A stretch of DNA of 64,000 bases. Source: Escherichia coli (lineage in GTDB: Bacteria > Pseudomonadota > Gammaproteobacteria > Enterobacterales > Enterobacteriaceae). Both the position numbers and the translations under genes were made by a program. Below the pieces are notes generated by a model. It was not told the DNA's origin and did no database searches. It saw only the letters and a program-made list of their open reading frames with translations. Below, piece after piece: positions 31,650 through 34,116 of the stretch. Numbering within the stretch: position 1 is the first letter of the stretch; each line of letters starts with the position of its first letter. The stretch lies in assembly GCF_013315695.1 (NCBI RefSeq), contig NZ_CP054353.1. One strand, 5' to 3'.

Positions 31650-31988
31650 TTATAAATCAGCCTGTTTAATAAAACTTTGCCCGCGAAGCAGACGATCAAC
31701 CGTGCGAAGTGCTTCGTATAATGTGAAATCCTGCCCGAACTGATTGTCGCCACAGCTCAATGCAAAAATGCGGTTTCCGGTAAACGGATTGCGTGGGCAT
31801 TTGTGGATCACGATTCCAGCTTTCTCAATCAGCCAGGCGTGCTCGCCGATTTGTTTTACTGGGTAGCCATCCGGCGTTGCGTGTGTATCACTCAGGCTGT
31901 AGCGGATGTTGCTGCGTGATGCACTGGTAGTGAAACGGTTAGCGTGGCGTTCTGTTCCGGTACGAAAATTACGGCGTTGCTTCAGCAT
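31650..31988 (-). CDS. Hypothetical early protein (112 aa)
   Basis: ORF track. GAGGTG lies 7 nt upstream of the ATG. Confidence 0.6.
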   Translation of the reverse strand: MLKQRRNFRTGTERHANRFTTSASRSNIRYSLSDTHATPDGYPVKQIGEHAWLIEKAGIVIHKCPRNPFTGNRIFALSCGDNQFGQDFTLYEALRTVDRLLRGQSFIKQADL

Positions 31989-32002
31989 AAAATGACACCT
32001 CG

Positions 32003-32281
32003 TTATTTTGTCATCTGCACGTATTTTTCTGCGCTCCTGATTGTTTTCAGGAAAAGAGCGAAGAGATTTACTGTGCGTCTTGAGTTCTTTTCATCCTGGT
32101 TGATGGGAATTGAACCTCTGTCAGCCTGTCTTTTCACTGTGTTAACAGCTTGGTTAGTACGCTTTGCGTAATCTTTCAGGCTTTCTTCAAGTACTGGTAA
32201 CCCATGCTCATCGCGGTAGGGATAGAACGCTGCTAAACGCTCAAAGTCTGCCTGTTCGTGTGTGTTCAGGACTTTTGCCAT
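32003..32281 (-). CDS. First early gene, Cox/Apl-like position (putative lytic-switch regulator/excisionase)
   Basis: ORF track, 92 aa. Divergent from the repressor across the operator region. The assignment is positional only. Confidence 0.45.
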   Translation of the reverse strand: MAKVLNTHEQADFERLAAFYPYRDEHGLPVLEESLKDYAKRTNQAVNTVKRQADRGSIPINQDEKNSRRTVNLFALFLKTIRSAEKYVQMTK

Positions 32282-32319
32282 GTGTGATAACCTGCGCTAT
32301 CTGTGGTTGTTTGTGATCT

Positions 32320-32373
32320 GGTGTACTTATAAGTACACCTTGTGCGCAAGCTTAGTGTACTTATAGGAACACT
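32320..32373. promoter_or_regulatory. Immunity operators: perfect 20-bp palindrome plus an imperfect second copy
   Basis: GGTGTACTTATAAGTACACC at 32320..32339 is perfect. AGTGTACTTATAGGAACACT at 32354..32373 matches 8/10 per half. Centres are 34 bp apart, between the divergent cox-like and repressor genes. Confidence 0.6.
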
Positions 32374-32377
32374 GTCA

Positions 32378-32686
32378 ATGCTTATCGGTGAAAAAATTAG
32401 AGTGATTCGTGAATCAGAGGATTTAACGCGCGAAGAATTTTGCGGCCTGATTGATGTGCCTATCGGCACTTTGCGTCGTTATGAAACGGGGCGGATTGAA
32501 AACATAGGGGGCGAAGTGCTTATCAAGATTGTTAATCACCCTCGCTTTTTTAAGTACATGAATTGGCTTATGACGGGAAAAACAAATGAGGCTGCTGGGC
32601 AGATCAGTCCGTCTCTCTCCCCTGATGGGCCAAAAAGCACATCGCCTTCTCAAAAACCCCGCAAGACTGGCACACAGCCCGGCTAA
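32378..32686 (+). CDS. Immunity repressor, HTH XRE/Cro-C1 type (P2 C-equivalent)
   Basis: ORF track 32342..32686. Start set to ATG 32378 (MLIGEKIRVIRESEDLTREEFCGLIDVPIGTLRRYETG). Confidence 0.75.
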   Translation: MLIGEKIRVIRESEDLTREEFCGLIDVPIGTLRRYETGRIENIGGEVLIKIVNHPRFFKYMNWLMTGKTNEAAGQISPSLSPDGPKSTSPSQKPRKTGTQPG

Positions 32687-32735
32687 TCATGGAGCGCTGG
32701 GGGCATGGTGGTCTTGTAACGCTGGGGTTTCACGA

Positions 32736-33710
32736 ATGAGCATAAAATCAATTCCGGGAGGATATCTTCTTGACATGCGCCCGGAGGGGCGTAAAGGCAA
32801 ACGCATTCGTAAAAAATTTAAAACGAAATCGGATGCAGTTTTATATGAGCGGTGGGTGCTGGCGCAACAGCATAACAATGAGTGGAAAGGAAACTCCATT
32901 GATCGCCGTCCGCTGTCAGTGCTTATTGACTTGTGGTGGAAATACCACGGTCAGCTAATGAAGTCAGGGCATAACACGCGCCTTAAATTGCTGCGCTTGA
33001 GTGAGGCAATGGATGACCCGTGCGTGCATAAACTTAATACAACGATGCTCACCGAGCTACGTGTGTCCAGGATAGAGCAGGGGATACAGCCCAGCACCAT
33101 AAATCGAGAGATTGGGGCGTTAAGCGCGATGTTTACCGCACTCATCTCATCCGGCCATTTTCTTAACGATAACCCCGTTCAAGGCCTTAAAGGAATGAAG
33201 GTTAACGAGCGCGAAATGGGATATCTGAGTAAGTCTGAATGTGTTCAGTTGCTGGATGCACTGGCTGAAAATCCCGATGAACGGCTGGCTGTCGAAATCC
33301 TTCTGTCGACCGGGGCGCGATGGGGCGAGGTAGCGGCACTGGAGCAGCGCCGTGTTCTTCATTGTCGAATCACTTTTTCAAAAACGAAGAACAGCAAAAA
33401 CCGTACCGTTCCTATTTCTGAAAGCCTGTTTGAAAAGATCAAAAAACGGGGCGGGAAACTGGTGTTTCCGACGCTGGATTATCCATTGGTTCGCGATGTC
33501 ATCAAAACGGTCGCACCTGATGTTCCTGACGGCCAGGCTGTTCATGCGCTGCGCCACACCTTCGCCAGTCATTTCATGATGAACGGCGGCAATATTCTGA
33601 CGCTCCAGAAAATTCTGGGGCACGCAAAGATTCAGACAACGATGATTTATGCCCATCTTGCGCCGGATTACTTGCAGGATGCGGTGAGATTTAATCCTAT
33701 TGCTGGGTAA
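32736..33710 (+). CDS. int: Tyrosine integrase (P2 Int-like)
   Basis: ORF track 32586..33710. Start set to ATG 32736 (MSIKSIPGGY). Catalytic signature ...ARWGE...HALRHTFAS...LGHAKIQTTMIYAHL. Confidence 0.9.
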   Translation: MSIKSIPGGYLLDMRPEGRKGKRIRKKFKTKSDAVLYERWVLAQQHNNEWKGNSIDRRPLSVLIDLWWKYHGQLMKSGHNTRLKLLRLSEAMDDPCVHKLNTTMLTELRVSRIEQGIQPSTINREIGALSAMFTALISSGHFLNDNPVQGLKGMKVNEREMGYLSKSECVQLLDALAENPDERLAVEILLSTGARWGEVAALEQRRVLHCRITFSKTKNSKNRTVPISESLFEKIKKRGGKLVFPTLDYPLVRDVIKTVAPDVPDGQAVHALRHTFASHFMMNGGNILTLQKILGHAKIQTTMIYAHLAPDYLQDAVRFNPIAG

Positions 33711-33720
33711 GGAGGATGTT

Positions 33721-34116
33721 GTGGAAAAAACAGTTAATAGCGATTTGCATTTAGGTCAGTACTGGAGAATAGACATTGTCTGCGATCCAGAACTTCGAGA
33801 TGAGGTTGAGCAATATTTTTCTCGACACGATGTTGGTTTTAGCAAAATTGAAGTTTTTTCCGTCGAAAATCCATATAAACTTGCTCTGTTCTTTGATTTC
33901 GCGAAGAAGGGTGTGGAGGTTGCAAAAGCCATTATGGGACTCTTAGACCGAAATGATATTGAAATAACGATGTATCGTGCTACGGACAGTAGCCCGCAGT
34001 CTGTAAAAAGCATCAAATTGCGTAAGTCTGAAGACGTAGAGAAATGTAAAGATTTGCTTAGTACGTGTGTCGCAATTGGCGTTCAACGAAATAAGGAAAA
34101 AGAGGGGAGCGAATGA
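33721..34116 (+). CDS. Orphan AT-rich gene between int and the prophage end (131 aa, unknown function)
   Basis: ORF track 33700..34116. GTG 33721 lies 5 nt after AGGAGG (33710..33715). No TM segments and no motif I recognise. Confidence 0.55.
   Translation: MEKTVNSDLHLGQYWRIDIVCDPELRDEVEQYFSRHDVGFSKIEVFSVENPYKLALFFDFAKKGVEVAKAIMGLLDRNDIEITMYRATDSSPQSVKSIKLRKSEDVEKCKDLLSTCVAIGVQRNKEKEGSE

Follow-up and report, generated by a model that had tools for sequence, protein, structure and literature searches.

Among phage repressors the P2 C family is the textbook exception, in that a symmetric helix-turn-helix (HTH) dimer is said to read direct repeats. The C proteins of P2, P2 Hy dis and WPhi are dimers that have been reported to act on two direct repeats, which measure 8 bp at a 22-bp spacing in P2, 8 bp at a 26-bp spacing in P2 Hy dis and 10 bp at a 34-bp spacing in WPhi, and the repeats of P2 and WPhi flank the -10 element of promoter Pe (PMC1904268). 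Both the P2 and the WPhi protein are dimeric in solution and bend their operators (PMC1904263, PMC2995052). Direct repeats seem to be the rule in all seven immunity classes known in 2010 (PMC2995052). Crystallography of P2 C revealed a symmetric dimer resembling those of palindrome-binding proteins, which surprised the authors, and the protein superimposes on the DNA-binding domain of P22 c2 with an RMSD of 1.9 A; the reading of direct repeats by P2 C was presented as a model without a DNA complex (PMC2995052).

The locus described here lies in a 64-kb stretch of Escherichia coli DNA (contig NZ_CP054353.1; 64,000 nt, hereafter the window) and encodes a member of the C family for which each repeat is a full palindrome, placed exactly at the positions of the P2 and WPhi half-sites. 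Very probably, a P2-like prophage uses these two sites as the operators of its lysis-lysogeny switch, which is of the P2 C/Cox type, and they act by the mechanism proposed below. To judge from the sequence, what is new here is the palindromic nature of the repeat units and the wide occurrence of this pattern in the C family; the locus itself is an immunity class of a known switch. A literature search for palindromic operators of C-type repressors found no description of them, and the paper that reportedly defines immunity classes I-VII (Karlsson et al. 2006) lay outside its coverage.

Gene content of the switch region

The prophage is P2-like (Peduoviridae, related to P88/Xuanwuvirus) and is inserted next to btuC in E. 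coli. Positions 31900-32800 are 99.7% identical to a prophage of O55:H7 CB9615, which is annotated with P2-type capsid, terminase, tail and replication gene A genes. A megablast search of the switch region against phage genomes returned only a 55-bp flank match to Xuanwuvirus P884B11, and a search of the literature on Xuanwuvirus and CP-933T found nothing relevant. The same switch is present in about 118 of 5426 complete E. coli genomes (~2%).

The repressor gene of this region (Table 1) encodes a 102-aa protein that matches the PDB entries 2L49/2XCJ, "C protein", over residues 3-98 (E=2.5e-15) and is 46% identical to gpC of P2 and of L-413C. It also matches Pfam HTH_3 (25.7 bits, cut-off 23), a generic (Cro/C1, "XRE") label that should fit P2 C as well. 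A preliminary description of this DNA had contrasted the protein, as an "XRE-type" repressor, with P2 C. That contrast is mistaken: the 102-aa protein is homologous to P2 C over its full length, and P2 C, too, belongs to the HTH proteins and dimerizes symmetrically (PMC2995052). Across the spacer, the 92-aa product of the first gene of the early operon matches phrog_575, "Cox-like excisionase and repressor" (E=1.1e-7). Its central region, DYAKRTNQAVNTVKRQADRGSIPI, aligns with FAKLIGKSTGAVRRMIDKGKLPVI of P2 Cox; similarity to P2 Cox is weak, at only about 15% identity, and the protein has neither a Pfam match nor a PDB sequence match. The integrase gene follows the repressor gene on the same strand, and we infer that the two are co-transcribed. 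A P2 C homologue with a divergent Cox-like gene and an integrase gene next to it indicates a P2-type C/Cox switch and not a different kind of repressor.

The locus was compared with a sample of 160 loci carrying relatives of C, together with six further loci (the window, L003, L005, L007, P2 and WPhi). Of these, 163 passed filtering and were clustered into 66 repressor classes.

Table 1. Features of the switch region, with positions in the 64-kb window
Feature	Position	Strand	Description
Cox-like protein, 92 aa	32003..32281	-	First gene of the early (lytic) operon; phrog_575
Pc, weak candidate	32275..32303	+	TTGCCA, 17 bp, TATCTG; -35 overlaps the Cox-like start codon; read from sequence
Exchangeable immunity cassette	32300..32570		Both operator sites, Pe and repressor residues 1-64; ~270 bp
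Distal operator site (predicted)	32320..32339		GGTGTACTTATAAGTACACC; ~+3 to +23 of the early transcript (predicted)
Pe -10-like element	32349..32354	-	TAAGCT; 18-bp spacer; start predicted near 32342
Proximal operator site (predicted)	32354..32373		AGTGTACTTATAGGAACACT; inside the Pe spacer, sharing one base with each hexamer
Shine-Dalgarno of the repressor gene (likely)	32365..32368	+	AGGA in the right arm of the proximal site; read from sequence
Pe -35 (predicted)	32373..32378	-	TTGACA; includes the A of the repressor ATG; conserved across classes
Immunity repressor, 102 aa, P2 C family	32378..32686	+	PDB, Pfam HTH_3 and phrog_147 matches
Tyrosine integrase	32736..33710	+	Pfam Int_N and Phage_integrase; downstream of the repressor gene as in P2

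Two palindromic sites in the intergenic spacer

The spacer between the divergent genes (32282-32377, 96 bp) contains two related sites. The distal site, GGTGTACTTATAAGTACACC, is a perfect 20-bp palindrome, equal to its own reverse complement. The proximal site, AGTGTACTTATAGGAACACT, is identical to the distal one at 16 of 20 positions, retains 8 of 10 dyad pairs and is separated by 4 nt (GTCA) from the repressor ATG. The two are in the same (direct) orientation with their centres 34 bp apart. The preliminary description had all of these sequence details (the 20-bp palindrome, its imperfect copy, the 34-bp distance, the 4 nt to the ATG and the 96-bp region) correct to the base.

No perfect palindrome in the window other than the distal site has 10-bp arms, and the runner-up has arms of 8 bp. 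As 19 of 200 Markov-1 shuffles contained such a palindrome somewhere in 64 kb, this palindrome by itself is not overwhelming, and a palindrome arisen by chance and without function is one alternative to be considered. The expectation for a given 96-bp spacer is far lower (~77 centres x 4^-10, or roughly 7e-5 by hand arithmetic). The 18-bp core, searched with up to 3 mismatches, has exactly two matches in the whole window against 0.01 expected, and a combined score for dyad symmetry and repetition upstream of the repressor gene gave z=10.1, a value reached by none of 400 shuffles. Further evidence against a chance origin is the conserved promoter that lies beneath the sites and the retention of the pair amid diverged flanks. 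The core-match and dyad-plus-repeat tests, together with the class-wide test described below, effectively exclude it.

A search of the 64-kb window for further copies of the operator, such as distal sites like those of 186, found none with up to 3 mismatches. Matches to the half-site were at the chance level (9 against 6.2 expected), so that a one-mismatch half-site, ATGTACTTA, at 32551-32559 on the minus strand, within the repressor gene and ~190 bp from the proximal operator, is probably meaningless.

Promoters

Read along the minus strand, the region consists of TTGACA, an 18-bp spacer coinciding exactly with the proximal-site core, TAAGCT, 9 bp and the distal palindrome. In the GenBank record of P2 the -35 element of Pe, TTGACA, overlaps the C start codon, with O1 in the promoter spacer and O2 past the -10 element, and the start site of P2 Pe has been mapped by primer extension (PMC1904263). 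TTGACA (up to one mismatch) is found at the repressor start codon, on the opposite strand, in 55 of the 66 repressor classes, P2 included. In 42 of these 55 it is followed 16-18 bp further on by TAnnnT, most commonly at 18 bp. A generic scan of 32150-32500 for sigma-70 promoters and terminators detected neither; it missed Pe because TAAGCT agrees with the consensus in just 3 of its 6 bases, and Pe was identified by anchoring on the annotated promoter of P2 and on conservation in the family.

For the opposing promoter, Pc, the candidate in Table 1 is a weak one. The region around it is conserved in heteroimmune relatives, its -10 hexamer is poor and the aligned hexamers are inconsistent. The TATAAG at the centre of the distal site was considered as a Pc -10 element and rejected, as it would demand a 15-bp spacer. 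With Pe at the repressor end and firing across the spacer, as homology with P2 indicates, the two promoters probably lie face to face. The preliminary description had called the region divergent, which holds for the genes and probably not for the promoters, these being face to face and not back to back by homology with P2. Both the face-to-face arrangement and autoregulation are assumed here by analogy.

The left part of the spacer (32282-32316), together with the 5' end of the Cox-like gene (32240-32281), is conserved across heteroimmune classes in the pattern TGTGTTCA..TTTTG(C/T)CATG..GTGATAACCT..TCTG..T(A/G)TTTGT. It contains TGTGAT twice, ~29 bp apart, and may be the home of Pc and of the Cox-like protein's own sites.

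Comparative analysis of repressor classes

Paired dyad-symmetric sites upstream of the repressor gene were detected in 29 of the 66 classes (shuffle p<=0.01), against ~0.7 expected. The spacing between the sites is 31-34 bp in 20 of these 29, and in most of them the proximal site lies no more than ~7 nt from the start codon. Examples are TGGAACCTATATAGGTTCCA (L030), GGTACGTATACGTACC (L148), GGAGCTAATTAGCTCC (L159) and, from a Pseudomonas class, TGTTCCTTGCGAGGAACA (L061). Every class has its own arm sequence, which implies that both arms have changed together many times. Identity in the recognition helix correlates with identity in the arms (Mantel r=0.62, p=2e-4), as does, almost equally, the rest of the N-terminal domain (r=0.59); the classes are related to one another, and these covariation statistics therefore overstate their independence. 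Where two classes have a helix in common, identity is 79% in the arms, 59% in the spacer between the sites and 31% in the left flank. Members of the window's own class vary at 8 of 40 site positions, mostly as singletons, and at 21 of 56 positions outside the sites.

The cleanest evidence on which protein the sites belong to is a double dissociation between two loci, L115 and L003, which suggests that the site arms follow the repressor and not the Cox-like protein. In L115 the repressor is 69% identical to that of the window and shares its recognition helix, and the Cox-like protein has only 38% identity; the distal site of L115 matches that of the window at 20 of 20 positions and its proximal site at 19 of 20. 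L003 has a Cox-like protein 87% identical to that of the window, a repressor N-terminal domain that is ~34% identical (our own count) and unrelated sites (AGTCGTCT...), which are dyad-symmetric too, about 32 bp apart and abutting the ATG. The recognition-helix residues read IGTLRRYETGR in the window and LGTIKNYESGK in L003. These two loci bear directly on the alternative that the palindromes are bound by the Cox-like protein, or by the integrase/excision machinery, instead of the repressor. Cox-type proteins do bind P2-type switch regions, where they repress Pc (PMC3448106, PMC3936717), and the Cox-like gene here starts 38 bp from the distal site. A Cox-like target would hardly be kept alongside a 38%-identical Cox-like protein and be wholly different alongside an 87%-identical one, and the 186 Apl protein is described as binding direct repeats one helical turn apart and not 20-bp palindromes (PMC7498355). 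We regard binding of the sites by Cox or integrase in place of the repressor as very improbable.

The covariation of the arms could equally be expected of an RNA stem, and a perfect 20-nt palindrome can form a hairpin on either transcript, so that the sites might act at the RNA level in the overlapping Pe and Pc transcripts, as an attenuator, a terminator or an antisense element. Neither site is followed by a T-run on either strand, nothing like a terminator was found in the scan of 32150-32500, and Rfam gave no match even at E<=1. A stem would moreover need neither two copies at a fixed distance of 31-34 bp, placed on the promoter hexamers, nor arms that track the recognition helix. Such a role for the palindromes is accordingly hard to credit, and the sites are better read as DNA targets of the repressor.

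The same dyad test gave p=0.05 for P2 and p=0.10 for WPhi; neither is significant, in agreement with the literature. Of the 37 classes that gave no dyad signal, 10 have significant plain direct repeats, including WPhi (10/10 at a 34-bp spacing), and the direct repeat of P2 (9/10 at a 22-bp spacing) just misses significance (p=0.06). By these tests the C family has both operator styles, and the predicted operators of the window are of the dyad style. A residual dyad of 6 of 8 pairs can be seen by eye in the proximal sites of P2 and WPhi; it is not significant and is not claimed here. In the WPhi spacer (AY135739, ~24056-24207), the distal half-site TATTGGTGAC is flanked by an 8-bp inverted repeat, CAAAAGGT..ACCTTTTG, and around the proximal half-site 6 of 8 pairs of an imperfect dyad are present, GTAACCTA|TTGGTGAC. 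This inverted repeat and this dyad, neither of them significant in the dyad test, may have a bearing on how WPhi C sits on its sites.

The distal site is the more symmetric of the two in 23 of 29 classes with a spacing of 29-34 bp. In the window, the two internal differences of the proximal copy (32366 A>G and 32368 T>A, converting TAAGTA to TAGGAA) are what creates the AGGA 9 nt upstream of the ATG. GGAG, AGGA or GAGG occurs in 11 of 24 proximal sites and in 2 of 24 distal sites among the classes compared. We propose that the proximal site is the less symmetric because its right arm doubles as the ribosome-binding site of the repressor gene; the proximal site then appears to have three simultaneous roles, as operator, promoter spacer and ribosome-binding site.

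This bears on the most serious alternative, in which the sites would be read in the manner described for P2: only the direct 11-mer GTGTACTTATA, comprising one arm and the centre, would be recognized, by one monomer of each dimer, and the symmetry would be incidental or used otherwise. All three studied members of the family (P2, P2 Hy dis and WPhi) have been described as direct-repeat binders (PMC1904268, PMC2995052), the sites here are in direct orientation at the WPhi spacing, and the left arm and centre are identical in both sites, with the mismatches falling in the right arm of the proximal one. Those mismatches are independently explained by the embedded AGGA. The distal site is perfectly symmetric, and recognition of a single arm would not select the symmetric arms, of differing sequence, that are seen in 29 of 66 classes. 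The crystallized P2 C dimer is itself symmetric and resembles palindrome binders (PMC2995052). On balance we consider single-arm reading unlikely, though less so than the other alternatives, and favor recognition of both arms by a repressor dimer.

Proposed mechanism and relation to known switches

The preliminary description had taken the two sites to be operators of the lysis-lysogeny switch, and on comparative grounds they are the best candidates for this role, the Pe layout being conserved and the sites covarying with the repressor. We infer that the 102-aa repressor, which its homology with P2 C suggests to be dimeric, binds as one dimer per palindrome, and each monomer would read one GTGTAC arm. 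The proximal dimer would occupy the 18-bp spacer of the leftward Pe, between the -35 TTGACA and the -10 TAAGCT, and the distal dimer would cover roughly the first 20 nt transcribed (~+3 to +23). Set 34 bp from centre to centre, a distance of about three helical turns that WPhi shares, the two dimers would keep RNA polymerase off Pe. Transcription of the Cox-like gene, and of the early and replication genes downstream of it, would then be silenced, which would maintain lysogeny and provide immunity to phages of the same class.

The closest counterpart of this arrangement is WPhi, which also has two directly oriented sites with 34 bp between centres, spanning the -10 element of Pe (PMC1904268), and a TTGACA that adjoins the C start codon. 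WPhi C binds a single site, which is consistent with one dimer per site (PMC1904263). Its sites differ from those described here in being 10-bp non-palindromic repeats, TATTGGTGAC, of another recognition sequence, and WPhi C is 38% identical to the 102-aa repressor in an alignment. P2 shares a homologous C protein (PDB 2XCJ/2L49), a Pe with its -35 element on the C start, one site in the promoter spacer and the other past the -10 element, and the gene order with a Cox-type partner and an integrase. It differs in its 8-bp direct repeats, GTTTAGAT, which lie 22 bp apart and have no significant dyad, and in a C protein that is unable to bind a single site (PMC1904263). The phage backbone also differs, being P88/Xuanwuvirus-like here and not Peduovirus. 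The repeats of a P2-type switch have been described as direct and non-palindromic, whereas the sites of the window are palindromic (10/10 and 8/10 pairs), though directly oriented.

The earlier statement that this switch uses inverted instead of direct repeats is half right: each unit is a palindrome, and the two sites also form a direct repeat of each other in the layout of P2 and WPhi. Since this direct repeat flanks the Pe -10 element with the spacing of WPhi, the gap to P2 is narrower than had been drawn and comes down to repeat units that are internally palindromic. A contrast with P2 C is misplaced for a repressor that belongs to the P2 C family and has a P2/WPhi-type layout. The suggestion of a distinct immunity specificity holds up, as the sites differ from those of P2 (GTTTAGAT), WPhi (TATTGGTGAC) and 186.

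In its action on DNA the repressor is probably like P22 c2, the 434 repressor and the N-terminal domain of lambda CI, in which a symmetric HTH dimer binds a dyad of ~18-20 bp with an AT-rich center. It stands outside those families, lacking a C-terminal oligomerization or RecA-cleavage domain. Lambda-like systems also differ in having a tripartite OR where two sites are found here, and a Cro that shares the same sites where the partner here is of the Cox type, probably with operators of its own. The 186 CI/Apl switch is that of a P2-like phage in which the repressor acts on inverted repeats between face-to-face promoters, but 186 CI is a repressor of another type, with 196 aa in two domains, and that switch also has distal operators and a promoter that depends on CII (PMC1904263, PMC1904268). 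The two-domain CI of ~190 aa and the distal operators that characterize a 186-type switch are not found here, the repressor being a 102-aa protein of the C type and the window holding no extra copies of the site. The class IX prophage PhiECO5 of UTI89 (PMC3448106) was considered as a relative and set aside; it is of the same phage lineage and has another switch, encoding a 113-aa HTH protein and a 173-aa Cox-family protein.

It is quite possible, and we put it forward tentatively, that one dimer per palindrome is the common and perhaps the ancestral mode of the whole P2 C family, and that the repeats of P2, P2 Hy dis and WPhi are derived or degenerate sites in which only one arm is still recognizable. 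If this mode is common, it would explain why the P2 C crystal presented a puzzle, its dimer being symmetric and its repeats asymmetric, and the class with the perfect 20-bp palindrome would be a natural system for a co-structure of repressor and DNA. The simple reading of one dimer per site, and two per operator, also makes this family member a better substrate for structural work. For a single locus the practical consequence is modest.

The immunity cassette and neighboring genes

The switch lies in an exchangeable segment (Table 1). Compared with the heteroimmune E. coli loci L003 and L005, which occupy the same chromosomal site, identity is 33-67% in the cassette and 57-100%, mostly 77-100%, in the flanks. 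At least four heteroimmune cassettes (those of the window, L003, L005 and L007) are found at the same position in otherwise near-identical E. coli prophages, and this swapping bears on how heteroimmunity evolves. On the right, recombination has its boundary within the repressor gene, and the C-terminal tail of the repressor, TNEAAGQISP(S/T)LSPDGP..., is common to all four loci; the equivalent tail of P2 C is disordered and dispensable (PMC2995052). The window's repressor also recurs at two other loci: L010/L011 have the same repressor, at 100% in a Salmonella enterica chromosome (CP191473.1) and at 98% in an assembly named "Vagococcus sp. WN89Y". Vagococcus is a Gram-positive genus, and the latter match looks like contamination or a mislabelled assembly.

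Several other genes of the prophage were noted. A 138-aa ORF (33700-34116, plus strand) separates the integrase gene from btuC at the end of the prophage; RefSeq lists it as hypothetical, it had no match in Pfam or PADLOC, and it may be cargo at the attachment-site end. A 268-aa protein containing a DUF3800 domain (Pfam E=3.5e-10) is encoded at 23450-24256 (plus strand), between the portal gene and parM, and matches the PADLOC candidate defence family PDC-M04A (E=2.6e-35). This location, next to cos, is where P2-like phages have their old/tin cargo. The CB9615 copy of the prophage has no annotated gene of this size there. At 24804-25763 (minus strand) the prophage encodes a full actin-like segregation protein, ParM (Pfam StbA_N and ParM_N), beside a gene annotated in RefSeq as a plasmid partitioning/stability protein, and plasmid-style partition genes thus co-occur with an integrase in one phage.
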